This document shows positions 32,272 to 54,366 of a stretch of 64,000 bases of DNA, piece after piece. How positions within the stretch are numbered: position 1 is the stretch's first letter; every line of letters begins with the position of its first letter. The stretch is from Escherichia phage vB_EcoM_EP57. The notes under the pieces are model-generated. The model made no database searches. It saw nothing but the letters and a program-made list of their open reading frames with translations, and was not told the DNA's origin. Where the stretch lies: the sequence record OR544956, one strand, 5' to 3'. The translations under genes were made by a program, and so were the position numbers.

Positions 32272-32880
32272 ATGCAGATAGTATGTGATTGGGATTTAGT
32301 TGTGGCTCCATTAGATGTTGCTTGGTTAGAATGGTTGAATAAGATTAGTGGACTTGGTGTTAAGATAGACACATTCACAAAAAATGCAGACTATGATCTT
32401 ACCAACTACTTTCCTGGTTTCAGGGAGGAGTTCAATATAGATCCTTACGGATTTCTGGATAATCCTCATCTCTATGATACAATGGGTTTTGTTGCAGGTA
32501 TGCCAGATTTCTTAAAGTATGTTTCAAGGAAAGGTAGCAATCTTTTGATCGCAAGTGTGACAAAAGGTGGTCACTTAAGTTCTAAACATAAGCATGTTTT
32601 AAGAACATTAGATACGATTGATTTTAGCAAAGGATCTGGCAACGGCTTTTTTGCTACGAAAGAAAAATACTTATTACCTTGTGATATAGCAATAGATGAC
32701 AGGGCTGATAACCTACTATATTTTCCAGATGAAGTGGTTAAAATATATTTTAATACGCCTTATAAAGATAACCATCTAGAAGAACTAAAGAAAAAACCAA
32801 ATGTTGTGATCACAGGTTTAGAAGATCAGTGGCTAACATGTTTGGATGTTTTTAACACTTTGAACAATTTTAAAAACTAA
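32272..32880 (+). CDS. HAD-superfamily phosphatase (5'-deoxyribonucleotidase candidate)
   Basis: N-terminal DWDLV (DxDx[TV]) and IDDRADN motif; sits among nucleotide-metabolism genes. Confidence 0.4.
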   Translation: MQIVCDWDLVVAPLDVAWLEWLNKISGLGVKIDTFTKNADYDLTNYFPGFREEFNIDPYGFLDNPHLYDTMGFVAGMPDFLKYVSRKGSNLLIASVTKGGHLSSKHKHVLRTLDTIDFSKGSGNGFFATKEKYLLPCDIAIDDRADNLLYFPDEVVKIYFNTPYKDNHLEELKKKPNVVITGLEDQWLTCLDVFNTLNNFKN

Positions 32881-32889
32881 GGAGAAAAA

Positions 32890-33888
32890 ATGACAAAACA
32901 GATTTCGGCTAGTATTATTGCGCATTCCATTACTGAAGACGGAAAAGAGATTGTAACTTTTGAACTAGAATATCCACGTATTATTCATTCAGAATTGATG
33001 ACTCACCGCCTGTTCAGTCGTAATGCTGCTTCTAGCCGTGCTATACCTGTTAAAACACTGATTGAAATGGTGCGAAATCAACCTGCTCGTCCTTATCGTT
33101 TTGGGGCTAACCAACCTGGTATGCAGGATAAAGGTGTTGATCATGACGCTCTTATTGATGCAGGTTATACTGCTCAAGAGTGGTGGGATCTTGCCGCGCT
33201 TAGTGCAGCACGTTTTGCAGAAGAATTCTCTTTGGCAGGGTACCACAAACAAGTTGCAAACCGTCTTCTGGAACCTTTCCAACGAATTAAAACAGTTCTG
33301 ACAGCAACAGAATATGAAAATTTCTGGTGGCTACGTGATGACAAAGAAGCCGATCCTACTATCGAAGCTTTGGCTAAAGAGATGCACAAAGAGTATGAAG
33401 GATCTACACCAGAAGTGCTGAAACCAGGGCAATGGCACACACCTTATGTAGACCATTTCTATGATAATATTGGTACAGAAGGTGACGATCATTTTGTTTT
33501 TGGTGGATACTACGTTCAAGATGAATCTGGAGAAGTTGTTGTGCTTACTTTGGAAGAAGCCAAAGCTATTTCAGCTTCGTGTTGTGCACAGGTTAGCTAT
33601 CGTCGTTTAAATGCAACTAAAGATAAAGCTTTAGATATCTATGGTCGCTTGCTGACTGGGCGCAAGGTTCATGCTTCTCCGTTTGAACATCAAGCTACTC
33701 CAATTCAAGAAACATGCGAACAATATGGAGAGAACTGTTTTGAAGATTTGTTTATCAATGCTCCTTGGGATTTTAACTCTTGGGAACCAGGTATTACCCA
33801 TGTAGATCGTAATGGTAAGTTTTGGTCTGGCAATTTCAAAGGCTGGATTCAACATCGTCAACTTTTAACAAATCATACTAAATGGTGA
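32890..33888 (+). CDS. thyX: ThyX-like flavin-dependent thymidylate synthase family protein with divergent signature and C-terminal extension
   Basis: MTHRLFSRNAASSRA aligns to the ThyX RHRxxSxxxxSSRY signature with first Arg replaced by Thr and Tyr by Ala; 332 aa. Confidence 0.45.
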   Translation: MTKQISASIIAHSITEDGKEIVTFELEYPRIIHSELMTHRLFSRNAASSRAIPVKTLIEMVRNQPARPYRFGANQPGMQDKGVDHDALIDAGYTAQEWWDLAALSAARFAEEFSLAGYHKQVANRLLEPFQRIKTVLTATEYENFWWLRDDKEADPTIEALAKEMHKEYEGSTPEVLKPGQWHTPYVDHFYDNIGTEGDDHFVFGGYYVQDESGEVVVLTLEEAKAISASCCAQVSYRRLNATKDKALDIYGRLLTGRKVHASPFEHQATPIQETCEQYGENCFEDLFINAPWDFNSWEPGITHVDRNGKFWSGNFKGWIQHRQLLTNHTKW

Positions 33889-38537: not shown

Positions 38538-38853
38538 TATCGAATGGCGTATGTTACAGGGTGCACCTTTTAATAAGTGGGAAGAGGCTGTAGGAGAAGA
38601 TCCTAGAATTGAAGAAGAATTTGACGGAGATTTTAACTGGTTCTTACAAGAAGGTCTGGACTTAAGCCGCATCTCTCCTTTCTACGATGCGGATGAGTCT
38701 TATTGCATATATGGCCTTGATTTAGAAGGCGGAGAGGGAAGCATAGCTGTAGATCTTGAGCAATTGAATGAGAATGCAAAAGAAGCCTATGCAAAGCTAC
38801 TTGAAAAATATAACATTAAAACGGAAACTATTATTTCTCAACATGTTTGGTAA
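38527..38853 (+). CDS. hypothetical acidic protein
   Basis: 108-aa ORF, coupled to neighbours. Confidence 0.35.
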   Translation: MGIDIEWRMLQGAPFNKWEEAVGEDPRIEEEFDGDFNWFLQEGLDLSRISPFYDADESYCIYGLDLEGGEGSIAVDLEQLNENAKEAYAKLLEKYNIKTETIISQHVW

Positions 38854-38862
38854 GGAGAACTG

Positions 38863-39855
38863 ATGCGCTATCTGGTAACAGGTGGTCTTGGTTTTATTGG
38901 GAGTGCCGTGGTGCGCTCTCTTTGTCAAGATCCTAATAACGAAGTTTTTGTCGTTGATAAGATGGGCTATGCAGCAGATATTGAGAATGTAGGCGATATC
39001 ACTCACGTTAAACTAAGCATAACAGATTTGGCAAACGAAACCCAGGTCAAAAGTTTAGTAGTAGAGTGCAATCCTGACTTCATCATTCACTTAGCGGCAG
39101 AAAGTCATGTGGATAATTCTATCAAGAATCCACGAGTTTTCATCGACTCCAATATTATCGGTACATACAATTTATTGGAAGCTGCAAGGCTCCTCCCAAA
39201 AAATAAACTGAAGATGTTCGTACACGTCTCCACAGACGAAGTGTACGGCGATATGGCAGACTCTGGCGTTCCCTTTACCGAAAAGACAGCTTATGCCCCT
39301 TCAAGCCCGTACAGTGCGTCTAAGGCAGCATCTGACCATCTTGTGAAAGCTTGGCACCGCACCTACGATTTGCCTGTTGTGATAACCAACTGCTCCAATA
39401 ACTTTGGGCCTTATCAACATCCAGAAAAGCTGATCCCAAAAATCATCACAAGTATCTTGACGAATAAAGAGATTCCGGTGTATGGTAAAGGCGACCAGGT
39501 GCGAGACTGGCTTTTTGTTGAGGATCATGCGCGAGCTATTCTTCAAGTGGCAACAGGTGGAGAACCAGGTCAAACGTATAATGTTGGAACACGTAATCCC
39601 AAAACCAATATGGAGATCATCTATATGGTTTGTGACTATATGGATACTGTACATCCAGAAGCAGTAACCTACCCTTCTTCCAACTTGATAACTTTTGTTG
39701 AAGATCGTAAAGGACATGACTTGCGTTATGAAATCAATCCTTCTAAGATAGAGTCTGAACTGGGCTGGAGTGCAAACTCTACATTTGAACAAGATCTCTA
39801 CTCAACGATTGAATGGTACTTAAACAACCCTCAATGGTGGAGTGAGAAAATTTAA
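38863..39855 (+). CDS. rmlB: dTDP-glucose 4,6-dehydratase
   Basis: [17 protein letters not shown] Rossmann motif; catalytic [15 protein letters not shown] (YxxxK); 330 aa. Confidence 0.9.
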
Positions 39856-39863
39856 GGAGGGTT

Positions 39864-40742
39864 ATGAAAGGTATTATTTTGGCGGGAGGAAGTGGAACCC
39901 GCCTTCATCCGGTAACACGCAGTGTGAGCAAGCAATTGCTCCCTGTGTATGACAAACCCATGATCTACTACCCTTTATCGGTATTGATGTTGGCTGACAT
40001 TAAGGATATTTTAATCATCACCACACCAGGTGATCAGGAAGACTTTGAGTATCTTCTCGGAGATGGGTCTATGTTTGGGATAAAACTCACTTACGCAATC
40101 CAATCCGAGCCACGAGGTCTTGCGGAAGCTTTCATCATAGGTAAAGATTTTATCGGAGAAGACTCTGTTGCTCTTATTTTAGGTGACAACCTATTCTTCG
40201 GACAAAGCTTTGGTAAACTACTGATTAACGCTAGTGAGATGGTAGATGTTTGGGGTGGAGCTTGTATCTTCGGGTATTTGGTGAAAGATCCTGAACGATT
40301 CGGTGTGGTTGAATTTGGGAGTAATCGTCAAGCTATTTCTATTGAAGAGAAACCTGAAAATCCTAAATCAGATTATGCTGTCACAGGTTTGTATTTCTAT
40401 GATAACTCTGTTATTCAACGTGCATTAGAAGTAACCCCTTCCGCGCGTGGAGAACTGGAGATCACTGATATCAATCGCAGCTACCTAGAAGACAGCAAGT
40501 TACAAGTGGAAGTTCTCGGACGAGGATTTACTTGGCTTGACACAGGAACACACGCCAGTCTGATGGAAGCTGGTCAATTCGTGCAGACTATTGAGAACCG
40601 TCAAGGATTGAAGATTGCGTGCCTGGAAGAAATTGCTTTCAAAAAAGGGTGGATTTCTTTAGAGACTTTGGTGTATCATGGAAACTCACTGAAGAAAACA
40701 GAGTACGGGCAATACCTACTCAAATTAGCGGAGAGAAAATGA
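39864..40742 (+). CDS. rmlA: glucose-1-phosphate thymidylyltransferase
   Basis: [39 protein letters not shown] signature; 292 aa. Confidence 0.9.
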
Positions 40743-41305
40743 AAGTAGAAAAAACAAAAATTGAAGGTGCGGTAATTATCAAACCAGACGTTTATAAAGA
40801 TGATCGTGGTTTCTTTCTAGAAACATATAATGAACAAAAATACGAAGATATTATTGGTAGACAAACTTTCGTTCAAGATAACATGTCTAAATCAAACTTC
40901 GGTGTTTTGCGAGGAATGCACTTTCAAACAAATAACCCGCAAGGTAAGCTTGTTCGTTGTGTAAGTGGGGAAGTATTGGATTTCGCTGTAGATTTACGTA
41001 AAGATAGTCCAACTTACGGTGCTTGGGACGGTGTTGTTCTTCGTGCACGACACCATACGCAGTTTTGGCTTCCACCTGGTTTGGCACATGGTTTTATAGT
41101 TTTGAGTATGGATGCGATCTTTGAATACAAATGCACAACTCCATACGACCCTTCTAGTGAACAAAGTTTACGTTGGGATGATCCTGATATAGGGATCGAT
41201 TGGGGCTTCGATATGATTTTTGACGAAGGTTTTAAACCTATTCTATCAACAAAAGATGCAATGGCTAAATCTTTTCAACAGTTACGTAGCGAGGGTGTAT
41301 GCTAA
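40739..41305 (+). CDS. rmlC: dTDP-4-dehydrorhamnose 3,5-epimerase
   Basis: ATG at 40739 overlaps rmlA stop (ATGA); cupin with RGMHFQ motif; 188 aa (track start 40619 is an upstream alternative start inside rmlA). Confidence 0.8.
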
Positions 41306-42141
41306 CATATCTGGTATTGGGCGGTAATGGACAACTGGGACAAGCTTTACGTAAAGTGGCTCCTTCAAATGTATCTTTAATTTATCCTAAAGAACGTGTA
41401 GATATTACAAATTTTGAAGCTGTGCGAAACGCTATTATTGAAGATTATGTAGATGGTGTTATTAATTGCGCCGCTTATACGGCTGTAGATAAAGCAGAAC
41501 ATGATTTTGCTACTGCTTTGGCTGTTAATGCGTATGGACCTGCAAATATTGCGGCAGTGTGCAGCAAACTTAAAATTGATTTTGTGCATATTTCTACAGA
41601 CTATATTTTTAATTATTCTCATCCTATTTTTGAAGATACTACACCTAACCCAATAAACAATTATGGGTATACGAAAGAACTTGGTGAAAAAATGGTGCGA
41701 GGAGTTAACCCAAATGCATATATTATTCGAACAGCCTCGGTATATAGCGAATTTGGAAATAACTTTCTAAAAACCATGTTGTCTCGCTATAATGATGGAC
41801 AACGTGATTTTATTATTGTTGCTGATCAGTTCTCTTGTCCAACATATGCTCCAGATTTAGCAGAAGCTATTTTTGAAGTATTAAAAACAGGTTGGTCAAG
41901 GTCTGTTAAGACTTACCATTTTGCAGGAAGCCATCTTATTTCTTGGGCGGAGTTTGCGGAAAAAATCTTGACACAGATGCCAGAACCTGTTAAGATATCG
42001 GCGGTATCAGCTTCAACCTATAATGCTCCAGCAGCACGTCCGGTGAAGTCACAACTAGTAACCAGTCACTATCTTACAAAATCAGATTTAAATAAAGGTA
42101 TTGAACAGTCTTTAGCAGTATTACTTAATAAGGAGAGGTAA
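41299..42141 (+). CDS. rmlD: dTDP-4-dehydrorhamnose reductase
   Basis: N-terminal LVLGGNGQLG; YGYTK (YxxxK); 280 aa; overlaps rmlC stop. Confidence 0.7.
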   Translation: MLTYLVLGGNGQLGQALRKVAPSNVSLIYPKERVDITNFEAVRNAIIEDYVDGVINCAAYTAVDKAEHDFATALAVNAYGPANIAAVCSKLKIDFVHISTDYIFNYSHPIFEDTTPNPINNYGYTKELGEKMVRGVNPNAYIIRTASVYSEFGNNFLKTMLSRYNDGQRDFIIVADQFSCPTYAPDLAEAIFEVLKTGWSRSVKTYHFAGSHLISWAEFAEKILTQMPEPVKISAVSASTYNAPAARPVKSQLVTSHYLTKSDLNKGIEQSLAVLLNKER

Positions 42142-45105: not shown

Positions 45106-45540
45106 ATGTTACAAGTTCCTGCTAAGTTTGTTGAAGGCGCTATCCACTCTTACCGTCAAACATGTAAGAGGGCAAGAAACTGTTTAGATGGTCTGGTGGC
45201 AAAAACCTATACTGTTGAAAAGAAAAAACGTTGGTTTGGCAAAGATGTTTACGAAGTTAATATTTTTGGTGAACATAAACTAAACCACGATACTCCTGAA
45301 AACATGTTAGAAATATTTCTAAGAGATGACAAAATATCTCCTATGGATTACCAACTTTTAAAATTTTATGATTCTTCTTTAGCTATTGATAAGTTTGTTG
45401 AAGATATTCTGTCTAGAAAAACAGATAAAAACACTTATCCTCTAGAAGCTGATCAAATAGGATTATTAAATGAGATTTCATCCTTTAAAGAGTTGGATAA
45501 TATTACAAAAGAGGAGATTTTAGATGGCATTAGATTATGA
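45106..45540 (+). CDS. hypothetical protein
   Basis: 144-aa ORF with RBS. Confidence 0.4.
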   Translation: MLQVPAKFVEGAIHSYRQTCKRARNCLDGLVAKTYTVEKKKRWFGKDVYEVNIFGEHKLNHDTPENMLEIFLRDDKISPMDYQLLKFYDSSLAIDKFVEDILSRKTDKNTYPLEADQIGLLNEISSFKELDNITKEEILDGIRL

Positions 45541-46033
45541 TCGCCCAACGAGCGATTATTATCCGACACCGCAAAAAGCAATCAATAGTTTGTTTAGTGT
45601 TATAGATTTCAAAAATCTAAAGGAAGAAGGTTGGGTTTTTGCAGAACCTTGCAGAGGTGAAGCTGAAGCGATTTATCGCCATTTTCCTGAAGGTTCAGAA
45701 TATTGCGAACTTGAAGAAGGTAAAGATTATTTTAGTCATGAATGGGAAAATCGTCCCGACATTATAATCACAAATCCTCCATTTAAGTTAGCAATGGAGT
45801 TCTTGGAAAAGAGCTTAAAAGAGGCGGATGTTTGTATTTATCTTCTTCGGTTGGGCTTCTTGGAGTCAAAGAAACGACGAGAGTTCCATCAAAAGAATCC
45901 ACCAACAAACCTTATAGTTCTTTCAGAACGGCCTTCGTTTGTTGCAGGTGGAACAGATAAGACAGCATACGCTTGGTATGTATACGACCCAAAGAATCGT
46001 TTGGGCCTCTCTCAACCATTTTATTTTGTTTAA
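45524..46033 (+). CDS. small N6-adenine DNA methyltransferase-like protein
   Basis: DYYPTP, AEPCRGEAEA (AdoMet pocket-like) and IITNPPF ((D/N)PP(Y/F)) motifs; 169 aa. Confidence 0.45.
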   Translation: MALDYDRPTSDYYPTPQKAINSLFSVIDFKNLKEEGWVFAEPCRGEAEAIYRHFPEGSEYCELEEGKDYFSHEWENRPDIIITNPPFKLAMEFLEKSLKEADVCIYLLRLGFLESKKRREFHQKNPPTNLIVLSERPSFVAGGTDKTAYAWYVYDPKNRLGLSQPFYFV

Positions 46034-47312: not shown

Positions 47313-47642
47313 ATGGAAATTACTACAGAACAAGCCCTTATCGATGAGGGTCGTAAAATCTTAGAAAAGTATTTAGGGGAGATTCATAAAACCCCTGGCT
47401 ATTTGGGTTGGAGAATTGTTGAAGCTGTAGATTTCCTTCCTCGTAACAGTAAAAACGTCGAAATGCGATCTCTTTTCTTATTAGTAAAGGTGGATGGGGA
47501 TACGCCTTTTAAAGATGCCGCAGAACATATTGAAAAAGTTGAAGAGAAAGCTTATGCAGAATTTGCCGATCTTGTTTTAGAACAAGAGATTGAAGGAAAG
47601 GTGAATATTTTTATTTTCTTAGATTTTGAGGAGGATAAGTGA
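47313..47642 (+). CDS. hypothetical protein
   Basis: 109-aa ORF with GGAGG RBS. Confidence 0.4.
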   Translation: MEITTEQALIDEGRKILEKYLGEIHKTPGYLGWRIVEAVDFLPRNSKNVEMRSLFLLVKVDGDTPFKDAAEHIEKVEEKAYAEFADLVLEQEIEGKVNIFIFLDFEEDK

Positions 47643-48382
47643 TCATACACAGAGAAATTACTGTTAAAAGCGATCAAGATCTTTTTATAATTGGAGATCT
47701 ACACGGTTGTTATAATTTGTATGAAAAAGGAAAGGCAAAGTTAGGTATCCGAGATACAGATGTGGTTGTATCTCTAGGAGATCTTACTGACCGTGGAAAG
47801 CAAAACTTTCGTTGTGTTTTAGAATTTACTCGTAAACACAATCGCTACGCTATTCGTGGCAATCATGAAGACATGATGATTAAAGGTATGCTGGAAGGAG
47901 ATCGTAGCTACTACGAGTGTTGGTATCAAAATGGAGGATATACGGTCTTTGAAGAATGTGGTGAAGAAGGAGCTACAGCCTTAGCAATGATGACAGAAGA
48001 TTTACCTGTTGTTCTCATTGTTAACTACAGAGGCATGAAACTTGCGTTTATTCATGGTGGGTACCCATCTTCTTTGGAATATCTCCCTGTAACAGATATT
48101 CCAGAATACATTTCGAAGATGACGAAAACACAGGAAAACCGTTTTGCTGAAGCACTTGTGTGGGACAGAGATATGGTAGACTGTGCTAAAGAGGGAATGA
48201 AACTTCCTGTTGTGATGGGTGTGGATTATGTGTTTCATGGACACTCTTATGTAAAAACACCTATTATCAATGCGAATCGTGTTTATATGGATACTGGATC
48301 TGTGTTCAATAATAACTTAACATTTGCTTATTTCGATATGGACGGTGGTCTTCAATTTTATTCAACTCTTGAGGAGGATTAA
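47639..48382 (+). CDS. Ser/Thr protein phosphatase (metallophosphoesterase)
   Basis: GDLHGC, GDLTDRG and RGNHE motifs in order. Confidence 0.8.
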   Translation: MIIHREITVKSDQDLFIIGDLHGCYNLYEKGKAKLGIRDTDVVVSLGDLTDRGKQNFRCVLEFTRKHNRYAIRGNHEDMMIKGMLEGDRSYYECWYQNGGYTVFEECGEEGATALAMMTEDLPVVLIVNYRGMKLAFIHGGYPSSLEYLPVTDIPEYISKMTKTQENRFAEALVWDRDMVDCAKEGMKLPVVMGVDYVFHGHSYVKTPIINANRVYMDTGSVFNNNLTFAYFDMDGGLQFYSTLEED

Positions 48383-48690
48383 TGTATAAGATTACAATTA
48401 TTCAAAGTGTAGGTAATATCCGTAAAGAAGTTATCTTAGAAACAGAAGATGTTAATCTTGTTCGTGAGATTGTTCTTAAGGAAGATAACCTGCAAGCTGT
48501 AGAATCAGATGCACCGAATCTTATGGTGGATCAAGAATATTCTGAACTTCGTCGTATTTTTGAAGAGATTCAGAAGAAAGAAACACAACCTACCATAAAA
48601 CCTTTTGGTCCTTATGATCCGAGCAATCCTAGCAGTCCTTGGATCATGAGAAATACGGAACCCTATACACCTTTTGAAATTACTTGTTGA
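48382..48690 (+). CDS. hypothetical protein
   Basis: 102-aa ORF, coupled. Confidence 0.35.
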   Translation: MYKITIIQSVGNIRKEVILETEDVNLVREIVLKEDNLQAVESDAPNLMVDQEYSELRRIFEEIQKKETQPTIKPFGPYDPSNPSSPWIMRNTEPYTPFEITC

Positions 48691-48697
48691 GGTGATT

Positions 48698-49279
48698 ATG
48701 GCAGAACTGTTCTATACGGGAGTTGGAAGTAGGGACATATCTGAAGAAGAGTGGGCTTTGATGGTAGGCATAGGGAAATGGCTTTCAAACCTTGGGTTTA
48801 AATTACGGTCTGGGAAGGCAGAGGGTAGTGATTCTGCTTTTGAAACAGGTGTCCAAGAGTCTGAAAATCCTACTAACAAGGAGATTTATGTTCCTTGGGA
48901 AAATTTCAAAGGTAATCAGATTCCAGGTGATGTTATTGTTCTTGCAAAACCAGATACAATGAACTATGCTATCTCTGTGCAATGGATTAAAGATGTTCAC
49001 CCAGCTTATGAAAAGCTTAAGCAGGGTGCTAGAAAATTGCACCAACGTAATGTGCATCAAGTGTTAGGCAGAGATTTGGAGAATCCTGCTCCATCATGTT
49101 TCTTATTGGCTTGTGCTAATACTGATAAACATGGGGATGCAAAAGGTGGAACAGCTACGGCTTGGAAGATAGCTAAAGCCAATAATGTTCCTTGTTTAAA
49201 CATTCGTGGGAAAACAAAACAAGAGATTTACGATTTTCTACGACCTTTGGTAATGAGGGCGATAACAAGTGATTCCTAG
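48698..49279 (+). CDS. DprA/Smf-like Rossmann-fold (SLOG) protein
   Basis: YTGVGSRDIS...LRSGKAEGSDSA matches the DprA GSR...SG.A.G.D pattern; ATG at 48698 with RBS. Confidence 0.45.
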   Translation: MAELFYTGVGSRDISEEEWALMVGIGKWLSNLGFKLRSGKAEGSDSAFETGVQESENPTNKEIYVPWENFKGNQIPGDVIVLAKPDTMNYAISVQWIKDVHPAYEKLKQGARKLHQRNVHQVLGRDLENPAPSCFLLACANTDKHGDAKGGTATAWKIAKANNVPCLNIRGKTKQEIYDFLRPLVMRAITSDS

Positions 49280-51012: not shown

Positions 51013-51022
51013 TAAATAATAA

Positions 51023-51044
51023 CCCGCTTCGGCGGGTTTTTTAT
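51023..51044 (+). terminator. rho-independent terminator
   Basis: CCCGC-TTCG-GCGGG followed by TTTTTTAT. Confidence 0.6.
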
Positions 51045-51072
51045 TGACAGGAATCTGGAAGCTTGATAAACT
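51044..51072 (+). promoter_or_regulatory. sigma70-like promoter
   Basis: TTGACA - 17 nt - TAAACT. Confidence 0.35.
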
Positions 51073-51102
51073 TAACCTATCAACCAATAGAGGAGAAATA
51101 TT

Positions 51103-52044
51103 ATGGTGTTAATTGGTAGCCGTGCATTGCAAATTCATGCTATGGACATGGGAAAAGACTTGTATCGCCCTTGTGTAGATTTAGATTACCTGTGTACAGA
51201 ACAAGAGTGGGAAGAATTATCAAAAATGTTCTCTCAAGACGAGTTTGTTGAACTTGTAGAACGTAAAGGAAACAAAGGCCATGTCAAAATGATAGCTGGT
51301 GCACATTTGGAATACGATATTGCTTCTCAAGGAGATAGCACAGAAGCTTTGATTAGCTATTGTGAAGATTCTGATGATGTTCGTCGAACTTACGCTGGAC
51401 ATGTTGTTGCTCCTTTAGATGTGCTCTACCTTCTTAAAATGAGTCATCGTTTTAAAAAGGATAGTCCTCACTTCTTTAAAACTATGAAAGATATTCATTT
51501 CATGCGGTCACTGGGCGCAAAGATCCCAGAAAATCTTAAGAGTATTTATGAGTTGCGTGAGAAAGAAACATACACTTACTCTCATCCGAACTTAAACGTA
51601 AAAAGTAAAGAGTTCTTTAAAGGTGACGAGGTTCCGTATGTTTATGATCATGATTCTATCCATGAAGCAATCGCGTTAATGGATGCTCCAGCATATAAAT
51701 CTTATATGAAAGATGGAAGTGAAGTTATGACCAGCAAAGAAAAGTTTTTTGCTCAACCAAAACATGTGCGGCTGTTAGGTGTTTATGAAGAAGCGTGTGT
51801 TTTGGCTTTGGAACGTTCACAAATTCCTTTCGGTGAAGAGATCGGAGGTCCAACCCCTAAGCAAAGTTTTATAATGGCTTTATCTAAAGTCTGCACATCC
51901 ATCACTAGTGGTTGGTTTAGGGAATATGCTTGGGAAAACTTTTATGTTGTTACTAAGCTATATGAAAACATGGGCGAAAACGACTATGTTGAACGTTTTA
52001 AAGCTAATCAACATGTAGTTAAGCCTTTTGAAGGAGGTTATTAA
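51103..52044 (+). CDS. hypothetical protein with weak nucleotidyltransferase-like GS...DxD pattern
   Basis: 313 aa; N-terminal LIGSRALQIH...CVDLDYL; spacing longer than canonical minimal NTases. Confidence 0.3.
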   Translation: MVLIGSRALQIHAMDMGKDLYRPCVDLDYLCTEQEWEELSKMFSQDEFVELVERKGNKGHVKMIAGAHLEYDIASQGDSTEALISYCEDSDDVRRTYAGHVVAPLDVLYLLKMSHRFKKDSPHFFKTMKDIHFMRSLGAKIPENLKSIYELREKETYTYSHPNLNVKSKEFFKGDEVPYVYDHDSIHEAIALMDAPAYKSYMKDGSEVMTSKEKFFAQPKHVRLLGVYEEACVLALERSQIPFGEEIGGPTPKQSFIMALSKVCTSITSGWFREYAWENFYVVTKLYENMGENDYVERFKANQHVVKPFEGGY

Positions 52045-52045
52045 T

Positions 52046-52441
52046 ATGTGTGGATATCTTTCAGAAAGTTATTTCAAAGTGACCCAGGAGGATTTAGAAA
52101 AAGCACGATTGAAACTGACAGCTATTATTGAATACTCTAATACTGTTGATCACAGATTAAAGACTACTAAAGTATCTGTTCCTTGTTGGTTAGGTTTACG
52201 GCATAAAACAATGTCTCAGCATGACCATGTTGTTCGAGAGATGCATGGTTGGTGTTGGTTTCACGATGTGGCTCTGCATTTTGGTTATATTACAGAAGAA
52301 GAGCATAGATTCTGTGAACTAACATATCGTATTCCAACCCTTTACGATTTAGATTTGTGGAAGAAAGCAAACGAGATTTTTCTTACAGAAAGTGATTGGC
52401 GTAAAGTTATGGCTTGTCTTGAATGGAGGGGTAATGAGTAA
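52046..52441 (+). CDS. hypothetical protein
   Basis: ATG at 52046 after GGAGG. Confidence 0.35.
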   Translation: MCGYLSESYFKVTQEDLEKARLKLTAIIEYSNTVDHRLKTTKVSVPCWLGLRHKTMSQHDHVVREMHGWCWFHDVALHFGYITEEEHRFCELTYRIPTLYDLDLWKKANEIFLTESDWRKVMACLEWRGNE

Positions 52442-53117
52442 AACAGTTTTGTCTATGTTTGACGGATCTGGGATCATGGTGTTACGTTATGCCGAAGCAG
52501 GTCACAAGTGTTTTTGTGTAAACGCTGATGAAGGGGATCACGGTAAATACGAGGTTAGGATGGAGCACCCAAACATAACCTATGTGAATGCTTGGATAGA
52601 TTCTACATTCAACCCTGAAGATCATGGGATACCTAAACCCGATATTATTTTTGGATTTCCACCTTGCACTATGTTAGCAGGTAGTGGTAGCAAACATGAA
52701 CGTAGCACAGAGGAATTAGATGAAGCTTTAGCTAATATTCGTGTAGTGGAAGCTTTGGGTAACAAATATAATGTTCCTTGGATGATTGAGAACCCAGTAG
52801 GTAAACTTTCAACCTTATGGCGTAAACCCGATTTTTACTTTGATCCTTATGAGTATGGTGGGTATTTGTTTGAAGAGGAAGGAAGCTTTCATCCTAAAAT
52901 GCCTACCCGTGATGGGTATACAAAGAAAACTTGTATTTGGCACGGCAATGGTTTTGTTCAACCAGTGAAGAAACCAGTAGATCATATAGGCTGCTTTTGG
53001 GGTTGGAAAAGCTTAGGTGGAGCTAGTGCAAAAACAAAACAACTTAGATCCCTAACCGCACGTGGTTTTGCTCGTGCCGTGTTTTTGTCTAACAATCTTC
53101 TAGATAAGGAGAAATAA
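52434..53117 (+). CDS. C5-cytosine methyltransferase-like protein (short, no obvious target-recognition domain)
   Basis: motif I FDGSG, motif IV GFPPCT (PCQ-like catalytic Cys), motif VI ENP; 227 aa from ATG 52434. Confidence 0.5.
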   Translation: MSKTVLSMFDGSGIMVLRYAEAGHKCFCVNADEGDHGKYEVRMEHPNITYVNAWIDSTFNPEDHGIPKPDIIFGFPPCTMLAGSGSKHERSTEELDEALANIRVVEALGNKYNVPWMIENPVGKLSTLWRKPDFYFDPYEYGGYLFEEEGSFHPKMPTRDGYTKKTCIWHGNGFVQPVKKPVDHIGCFWGWKSLGGASAKTKQLRSLTARGFARAVFLSNNLLDKEK

Positions 53118-53770
53118 TGTCAAATTCAAAACCAGTAGTTGCTTATCAAGTAGATCGTAATGATGGTGAAGGAAGTGTTGTTATTTTCAGTACACACGGT
53201 CTTGAGGCTCGTCGAAAAGGTGCATATCGTTTAGAATGTGAGTTTGAAGACTGCACAAGCCACCGTGTCAAACAATTCGATCAATATGCTGATAAAGGCT
53301 TCGTCCCTGTCAAAGCCTTACTGGAAGATGGTTGGTGGGTATATTCTGCTTTTGATTACTCAAGACTGGAGGAGTCAGCTTCGTGCGCCTCCGAGATCGA
53401 ATATGATGATTACTATGACACTCTGTACCTTCCAGAATGGCTTGTCTTTTCTCCTGATGAAAAAAGTGTCTGGAAAACGTGGGAAGAAATGGAGAGACAT
53501 GCGTATAGCATCAATGAAGCTTTAGATCGTAAAGCTTGGTTTATTGAGGCAGTAAAGGCGGCATACCCCCAATTCTCATTCTGTGATTTCACTGGTGGCC
53601 CAGGATACATTACACATACAGCCTCTTTTGAGTTTCCTGGTTCACGTTATAAGGGTAATGTTTATTGGGACTGGGATGAAAATAAACAACCTTCGGCTCA
53701 AGACTTCCGTTGCTATGTTTGTCAAGGTGATCAAGAAGCCCTTGACAAATACCTTGAAAGTCTGGTATAG
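53117..53770 (+). CDS. hypothetical protein
   Basis: 217-aa ORF, start overlaps upstream stop. Confidence 0.35.
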   Translation: MSNSKPVVAYQVDRNDGEGSVVIFSTHGLEARRKGAYRLECEFEDCTSHRVKQFDQYADKGFVPVKALLEDGWWVYSAFDYSRLEESASCASEIEYDDYYDTLYLPEWLVFSPDEKSVWKTWEEMERHAYSINEALDRKAWFIEAVKAAYPQFSFCDFTGGPGYITHTASFEFPGSRYKGNVYWDWDENKQPSAQDFRCYVCQGDQEALDKYLESLV

Positions 53771-53829
53771 TGCCGATATCTGAACAAAGCCTCCTGTTTC
53801 AGGGGGCTTTTCTTTTATAGGAGGGAATA

Positions 53830-54081
53830 TGTTTCAATGCACATTGGTTGGTGAGCAAACTAAAAGAAAAAGAGAAACCATTTCCTACTCTGCTTGATCG
53901 TTCTCTTGTGGAAGATGCAGGTAAAGCATATGCAGACTATGCGTATGCAGACGGGAAATATTTGGAAGATGATAAGGCTAACCATTTGCTTTATGTTTAC
54001 TATGAAGCTGAATCTGCCTACGATAATTATTACAGCATGTCTAACATCCTACGTCTGTTTGCAGAGTTTGATATTTATTAA
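53830..54081 (+). CDS. hypothetical protein, apparently frameshifted in an A-rich run (ATG 53830 frame closes after 22 codons; 77-aa frame from 53848)
   Basis: strong RBS and ATG at 53830; downstream frame lacks RBS and starts TTG; homopolymer-rich aaactaaaagaaaaagagaaacc at junction. Confidence 0.3.
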   Translation, partial: CFNAHWLVSKLKEKEKPFPTLLDRSLVEDAGKAYADYAYADGKYLEDDKANHLLYVYYEAESAYDNYYSMSNILRLFAEFDIY

Positions 54082-54098
54082 ACAAATAAACCACTCAA

Positions 54099-54118
54099 GG
54101 GGCTTCGGCCCCTTTCTT
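54099..54118 (+). terminator. GGGGCTTCGGCCCC hairpin plus T-tract
   Basis: GGGGC-TTCG-GCCCC then TTTCTTATT. Confidence 0.45.
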
Positions 54119-54132
54119 ATTAGGAGAATAAA

Positions 54133-54366
54133 ATGACTGAAGAAATCCGTGATTACTACCTTGCACATTACGTTTACTACTTTGCCAATGCTACACAAAA
54201 AGGGGAAGGTAATCTTTACTTGGCAACAGGACATGGAACAGGCGTTAGGAAATCAGAAGATAAACTTCAAACACCTGTAGTTGTAGTGATGCAAAACATA
54301 AGTTACCTAGCAAGTTGTACTGAAACCGAATTTAACGCGTCTGAAACGCAATCTAACGAAGAATAA
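54133..54366 (+). CDS. hypothetical protein
   Basis: 77-aa ORF with RBS; last plus-strand gene before convergent terminator. Confidence 0.4.
   Translation: MTEEIRDYYLAHYVYYFANATQKGEGNLYLATGHGTGVRKSEDKLQTPVVVVMQNISYLASCTETEFNASETQSNEE

Follow-up and report, generated by a model that had tools for sequence, protein, structure and literature searches.

A probable short Dcm-like C5-cytosine methyltransferase and a neighbouring MenT-like nucleotidyltransferase in Escherichia phage vB_EcoM_EP57

In phage K42, a relative of KarlJaspers (Bas06), escapers from the retron Ec86 (Eco1) have lost or silenced a 711-bp 'dcm' gene, the expression of which is toxic only alongside the retron and raises the level of 5-methylcytosine (5mC) in the multicopy single-stranded DNA (msDNA), as measured by liquid chromatography-mass spectrometry (bioRxiv 10.1101/2023.08.16.553469). 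In the same study, K42 Dcm was effective when expressed alone from a plasmid, its C82A/E128A/K175A/K176A mutant was inert, such a Dcm was encoded by 34 of the 35 Ec86-sensitive phages, and toxicity of Dcm itself was mentioned (bioRxiv 10.1101/2023.08.16.553469). Activation of Eco1 by a phage cytosine methyltransferase that methylates msDNA was restated in a 2026 paper (PMC12916289). Here, we analyze a related gene, open reading frame (ORF) C, in a stretch of 64,000 nucleotides from Escherichia phage vB_EcoM_EP57 (OR544956; hereafter, the window), together with the nucleotidyltransferase-like ORF A encoded upstream of it on the same strand.

The window is 99.6% identical to Escherichia phage tuntematon, and the genomes of phAPEC8, ESCO13, ZCKP1, and other Phapecoctavirus members (Stephanstirmvirinae) are at least 99% identical to it. 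In these near-identical records, ORF C is labelled 'Dcm', 'DNA methyltransferase', or 'putative site-specific DNA methylase', and ORF A 'hypothetical protein'. The short methyltransferase gene is already known both in kind and by annotation, and is real but ordinary. ORF C starts with an ATG just preceded by GGAGGGG; an alternative in-frame GTG at 52392 would yield a protein of 241 amino acids (aa), and the relatives are annotated from the ATG. The gene and its motifs are arranged as follows:

52434..53117, plus strand: ORF C, 227 aa, predicted short Dcm-like DNA C5-cytosine methyltransferase (phrog_757)
52458..52472, plus strand: motif I, F9-D-G-S-G13, loop binding S-adenosylmethionine (SAM)
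52659..52670, plus strand: motif IV, P76-P-C78-T79, with the catalytic cysteine; C78 kept in 131/131 homologues
52788..52796, plus strand: motif VI, E119-N-P121; E119 kept in 131/131 homologues
52917..52940, plus strand: motif VIII-like strand, Y162-T-K164-K165-T-C-I-W169, with Lys replacing the canonical RxR
52941..53042, plus strand: residues 170-203, the sole candidate for target recognition, varying in part among family members
53043..53081, plus strand: motif IX-like segment, L204-R-S-L-T-A-R-G-F-A-R-A-V216, by best ungapped placement with weak support from shuffling

The KarlJaspers protein (bas06_0055, 236 aa), encoded by a 711-bp gene annotated as 'Dcm-like C5 cytosine methyltransferase' (MZ501090), carries C82, E128, K175, and K176 as published for K42 Dcm and is 50% identical to ORF C (E 1e-71, residues 5-220 of ORF C against 6-234), with these four residues corresponding to C78, E119, K164, and K165. 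The KarlJaspers/K42 and EP57 proteins share the FPPCT, ENP, KK, and LRSLTPRGFARAVF segments as well as the overall architecture, and all are products of stand-alone genes of lytic coliphages, KarlJaspers and K42 belonging to Drexlerviridae and the ORF C phage to Stephanstirmvirinae. Because of the full-length identity of 50% and the equivalence of these residues, ORF C is, as judged by sequence comparison, a member of this named and experimentally touched family.

The family is large, and its members are uniformly short. A search of 5.8 billion proteins with ORF C returned 870 matches, and an exhaustive search of 1.84 billion cluster representatives yielded 965 clusters at E<=0.001; among the 150 representatives listed of these 965, nearly all are 200-260 aa long and cover the whole query, and 86 of the 150 carry the PCT/ENP signature. 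ORF C was assigned to phrog_757, 'DNA methyltransferase', in PHROGs (E 1.8e-84). Using tblastn, the gene was detected in 1,487 of 50,697 phage records (~3%), including Klebsiella and Escherichia Drexlerviridae, Vequintavirinae, Stephanstirmvirinae, and Dhillonvirus. Conservation was counted over 131 family members with identity down to ~33%. Apart from C78 and E119, both at 100%, P121 is retained in 99% of the homologues, and T79, which follows the nucleophile in ORF C in place of Gln, in 90%; Y162 is present in 100%, and K164, T166, and W169 in 99%. The column conservation of residues 181-200 is 0.36-0.44, and motif I of the wider family reads SLFDxTG, compared with FDGSG in ORF C. Because the catalytic residues are conserved across these 131 homologues, the C5-methyltransferase motifs FDGSG, PPCT, and ENP, which the initial annotation had recognized in 52434..53117 and the coordinates and residues of which we confirmed, are not chance occurrences. 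A truncated pseudogene is excluded because short length (~220 aa, within a range of about 200-260 aa) is the norm of the family and the catalytic residues are conserved.

An AlphaFold2 model of ORF C built from 21 homologues (predicted local distance difference test score 84, predicted template modelling score 0.85) places strand beta-7 at residues 166-171 and the final helix at residues 210-220. A Foldseek search with this model retrieved DNMT3A/B at E ~3e-7 with a probability of 1.00. In the model, ORF C has the class I SAM-methyltransferase fold of the C5 type with intact catalytic Cys and Glu, which, for a gene that stands alone, agrees with the initial proposal of an orphan C5-methyltransferase-like protein. 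The identity to the catalytic domains of DNMT3A and DNMT3B is 15-19%, and the DNMT3 domain, unlike ORF C, spans ~280 aa, contains motif X, forms oligomers with DNMT3L, and is eukaryotic. Sequence searches against the PDB, with the single protein and with a profile of 55 sequences, gave marginal matches to M.HaeIII and DNMT2 over motifs I-IV. ORF C could be an RNA (e.g., tRNA) C5-cytosine methyltransferase in the manner of DNMT2, in which case the tiny conserved recognition segment would fit a single conserved RNA substrate. We regard this as very improbable, given that DNMT3B (14.0) and M.HhaI (11.8) score above Dnmt2, that the homologous K42 Dcm raised 5mC in DNA (msDNA) in vivo, and that the gene is also found in many small phages.

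The departures from canonical C5-methyltransferases are concentrated in the C-terminal part. In M.HhaI, the target-recognition domain (TRD) comprises ~80 aa or more. ORF C is ~100 residues shorter than M.HhaI and M.HaeIII (PF00145) and has only residues 170-203, ~35 aa between the motif VIII-like and IX-like segments, at the place where those enzymes carry the TRD; the initial description of a protein of ~227 aa with no evident TRD thus holds. The PCQ, ENV, and RxR signatures of the canonical type II enzymes are replaced in ORF C by PCT, ENP, and KK, and Lys164 and Lys165 probably substitute for the motif VIII arginines. The best ungapped placement of LRSLTARGFARAV is on motif IX of M.HaeIII (position 271, RRLTVRECARV) and M.HhaI (position 270, RKLHPRECARV), a weakly supported placement, with 38 to 653 of 2000 shuffles scoring equally. 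This segment may join the beginning of motif IX (RxLTxR) to a degenerate motif X (G-F-A replacing G-N-A).

Taken together, these comparisons suggest that ORF C belongs to the short Dcm-like family of phages and is likely an active, SAM-dependent orphan enzyme that methylates C5 of cytosine in DNA. If it works as other C5-methyltransferases do, Cys78 would attack C6 of a flipped-out cytosine, Glu119 would protonate N3, and the methyl group of SAM would be transferred to C5, after which beta-elimination would free the enzyme. In this scheme, Lys164/Lys165 would occupy the place of the canonical motif VIII arginines, and recognition of DNA would rest on the minimal segment of ~35 aa. The gene would be transcribed during infection from its own promoter, along with three unrelated genes, and a short, as yet unmapped motif in the DNA of phage and host is the most likely site of methylation; for a homologue, CCWGG has been proposed. 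Protection from 5mC-sensitive nucleases is a plausible benefit, and triggering of retron Eco1 (Ec86) is a known cost of such enzymes that may apply here.

Several observations weigh against this interpretation. PF00145 matches ORF C at E 0.18, with 11.6 bits against a gathering threshold of 22 bits and over residues 4-92 only; it reaches E<=0.01 for just 2 of 55 family members, and NCBIfam gave no match to ORF C. In hhalign comparisons, M.HhaI alone aligned with ORF C over motif IV only, whereas the M.HhaI/M.HaeIII profile, a shallow one for which all recruited homologues were at least 71% identical to M.HhaI, aligned with residues 1-143, spanning motifs I, IV, and VI (E 1.9e-4, 48% probability). 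That alignment is credible only as far as PYEYGG (opposite ALDYGI), which immediately precedes motif VIII; the C-terminal third of ORF C yielded nothing against the same profile, and the canonical motif VIII QxRxR had no sequence match in ORF C in comparison with either M.HhaI or M.HaeIII. No motif X GN(A/S)V is recognizable in ORF C, which ends 11 residues past the motif IX-like segment. In the phAPEC8-type clade, the Asp of the wider family is replaced by Asn (N30), and position 209, which is Pro in 92% of the family members, is Ala in the window protein (A209). Furthermore, the loops that are candidates for reading DNA, at residues 143-162 and 176-195, show the lowest conservation within the C-terminal half of ORF C and are poorly conserved with respect to KarlJaspers Dcm.

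The name of the gene is also of limited help. With 472 aa and a large TRD, E. coli Dcm is a full-length member of PF00145. Together with M.EcoRII, it is the source of the gene name in the annotations, and its target was assumed to be shared by the authors of the K42 study: the CCWGG target of K42 Dcm was adopted from E. coli Dcm, backed only by a mutation in the msDNA stem, and the experiments were performed in a dcm+ host, MG1655 (bioRxiv 10.1101/2023.08.16.553469), points that likewise weigh against the favored interpretation. A common name is no evidence of a common specificity. In the window, 60 CCWGG sites are present compared with 64 +/- 7 expected, which is uninformative either way. The short Dcm-like family might represent a natural minimal C5-methyltransferase that dispenses with motif X and recognizes its target through only ~35 aa, and whose real target would perhaps not be CCWGG but a very short, structure-dependent one (hairpin or single-stranded DNA, such as retron msDNA) or a clade-specific one; joint action of the phAPEC8-type copy with the MenT-like nucleotidyltransferase of its transcription unit is conceivable as well. 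We consider this scenario possible but unlikely; it retains some weight because the candidate loops differ from those of K42 Dcm and because the authors of the K42 study noted the toxicity of Dcm.

The same departures bear on whether ORF C is catalytic at all. A protein with little or no activity that acts by binding, for instance by sequestering SAM, by serving as a decoy on DNA, or in a regulatory role, would be compatible with the missing motif X and motif VIII RxR, with N30 in place of Asp in the phAPEC8-type clade, and with the BASEL study, which saw no protection from restriction-modification systems (PMC8594841). The complete conservation of the nucleophilic Cys and of the Glu in 131 sequences is unexpected for a pseudo-enzyme, and the catalytic mutant of the homologous K42 Dcm lost its effect, making this explanation very improbable. 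With regard to an active enzyme, an anti-restriction role is plausible, but a protective effect is not evident from the same study, in which Vequintavirinae and their relatives were exceptionally sensitive to restriction-modification systems and no pattern tied methyltransferase genes to resistance (PMC8594841).

Another possibility is that the group transferred is not methyl but, for instance, carboxymethyl taken from the carboxy-SAM (Cx-SAM) of the host, resulting in a hypermodifiable base, as in the case of CmoX. CmoX has an SPPC motif and a key arginine, R350, and is linked to CmoA and CmoY (PMC12783734). The solved chain of this phage DNA cytosine C5-carboxymethyltransferase (PDB 8yf3) comprises 333 aa; ORF C has FPPC instead of SPPC, and the arginine of CmoX (at the position of N304 in M.HhaI) cannot be placed in ORF C, in which motif X is unidentifiable. 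At the level of annotation, neither CmoA, the Cx-SAM synthase, nor the CmoY ligase is present in the ~60 kb of tuntematon that match the window. We therefore view transfer of a non-methyl group as very unlikely and retain methylation of DNA as the favored activity of ORF C.

ORF C is the third gene of a compact unit (51021-53810) that includes the following features:

51021..51038, plus strand: intrinsic-terminator-like hairpin ending the upstream unit (7-bp stem with 5 GC pairs, then a T run)
51044..51072, plus strand: candidate sigma-70-like promoter of the four-gene unit (TTGACA-17-TAAACT, 10/12 matches, with TG; consensus match only)
51103..52044, plus strand: ORF A, 313 aa, MenT/AbiEii-like nucleotidyltransferase (Pfam DUF7277 and DUF7275, phrog_2141)
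52046..52441, plus strand: ORF B, 131 aa, function unassigned (phrog_16551)
53117..53770, plus strand: ORF D, 217 aa, function unassigned (phrog_8514)
53786..53810, plus strand: intrinsic terminator closing the four-gene unit (11-bp stem, then a T run)

The start of ORF C overlaps the stop of ORF B by 8 nt (52434/52441) and the start of ORF D overlaps the stop of ORF C at 53117. Translationally coupled and flanked by terminators, the four ORFs A to D make up a single unit. Neither ORF B nor ORF D had a match in Pfam, NCBIfam, or PADLOC.

ORF A begins with MVLIGS, in which G5-S6 is followed by D26-L-D28. The residues G5, S6, D26, D28, and E70, corresponding to the hG[GS] and DxD motifs and a third acidic residue, are invariant in 30 homologues with 51-81% identity, so that the loose GS...DxD pattern seen in the initial annotation proved to be genuine. 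ORF A has the bi-lobed MenT fold and is a nucleotidyltransferase of the pol-beta type, of the MenT/AbiEii kind, at the level of the fold, with no substrate assigned; the earlier label 'nucleotidyltransferase-like' is correct at that level. Enzymes of this kind extend the 3' ends of tRNA (PMC7450476). In the segment KMSHRxKxxSPHFxKTxxDI of ORF A, the residues K112, R116, K126, and D130 show little or no variation among the 30 homologues and are candidates for the C-terminal motifs III and IV (Lys/Asp, equivalent to K189/D211 of MenT3). Pfam returned only DUF7277 and DUF7275 for ORF A, with no match to the DUF1814 model, and PADLOC gave no match. Compared with MenT1, MenT3, MenT4, and AbiEii, ORF A has an additional helical region of ~150 aa (DUF7275) that is rich in invariant His, Asp, and Tyr residues, and it is encoded by a phage without a recognizable antitoxin; in the other large phage contigs examined, no conserved antitoxin-like neighbour of the ORF A family was found. 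A literature search on DUF7275, DUF7277, phrog_757, and phrog_2141 found no paper.

The tight organization of the unit, with its overlapping stops and starts, could indicate that ORF C and ORF A, along with B and D, form one pathway for a two-step modification of nucleic acid. Citrobacter phage Tr1 retains the A-C-D order at ~65% identity, without B, and the ORF D homologue that follows C in this phage shows 51% identity. Outside Stephanstirmvirinae, by contrast, the A and C families never occurred together in the loci examined. In a 45-kb siphovirus, the methyltransferase lies among tail genes, in Vequintavirus EmilHeitz among genes for replication, and in Drexlerviridae among small early genes, each time without the nucleotidyltransferase; the ORF A family, in turn, occurs without the methyltransferase in two other large phage contigs. 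Linkage of the two families outside Stephanstirmvirinae was accordingly rejected on the basis of six loci from other phage groups. A joint pathway appears highly improbable, and because C and A occur apart elsewhere and K42 Dcm acts alone, the adjacency of A and C is read as lineage synteny rather than as a pathway.

Two further features of the window were placed by correspondence with tuntematon:

~32800-33800: ThyX
~38800-42100: rmlB-rmlA-rmlC-rmlD, a complete deoxythymidine diphosphate (dTDP)-rhamnose set

The initial annotation had assigned ORF C to a module with ThyX and the rml genes and suggested that it might act on nucleotides. The assignment does not stand, as the ThyX, nrd, and rmlABCD genes belong to other transcription units, located 10-20 kb upstream of ORF C. 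Methylation of free nucleotides (deoxycytidine mono- or triphosphate) before incorporation, together with ThyX, would draw on the presence of ThyX and nucleotide-metabolism genes in the window, but otherwise goes back only to that earlier suggestion. ThyX is located ~19 kb upstream in a separate unit, and the 50%-identical homologue of ORF C is reported to act on polymeric DNA. Known C5 methylation at the nucleotide level is the task of thymidylate-synthase-like enzymes, which do not have the ORF C fold, and we consider an activity of ORF C on free nucleotides exceedingly unlikely. With respect to the rml genes, a preprint on Danish wastewater phages suggests that some of its phages glycosylate hydroxymethylated nucleotides with rhamnose, and a putative dTDP glycosylation machinery of the phi92-like relatives is mentioned in the BASEL paper (PMC8594841).

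Other genes of the window include a second small methyltransferase-like ORF (45524-46033, 169 aa) with the NPPF motif typical of amino (N6A/N4C) methyltransferases, which matches phrog_799, 'DNA methyltransferase', at E 2.8e-59, over only the C-terminal part of the 458-position profile. A NinI-like Ser/Thr phosphatase (metallophosphoesterase) and a DprA-like/SLOG-type protein (phrog_768) are encoded at 47639-49279, a few genes upstream of the four-gene unit and on the same strand. At 53830-54300, the window differs from tuntematon by three deletions of 152, 873, and 39 bp (junctions near 53838, 54080, and 54255) in otherwise identical sequence, as a result of which the gp209 homologue is frameshifted, a whole Sir2-like (NAD-dependent deacetylase) gene is removed, and the gp207 homologue lacks 13 codons. 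None of 64 related phage records matched 53830-54300 as one contiguous piece; a natural variant, an escape mutant, and an edited or mis-assembled sequence are all candidate explanations.

The main value of these results lies in clarification: a gene that appears odd from the raw sequence belongs to one of the commonest accessory gene families of enterobacterial phages. The Pfam and NCBIfam models miss the short Dcm-like family, which leads to inconsistent automated annotation ('hypothetical protein', 'membrane protein', or 'Dcm'). The MenT-like nucleotidyltransferase encoded in the same unit represents an uncharacterised family of phage proteins. At ~220 aa, apparently without motif X and a normal TRD, the Dcm-like proteins could represent the most compact C5-methyltransferase scaffold in nature, a point relevant to enzyme engineering, and phAPEC8-like phages are predicted to be sensed by retron Eco1.

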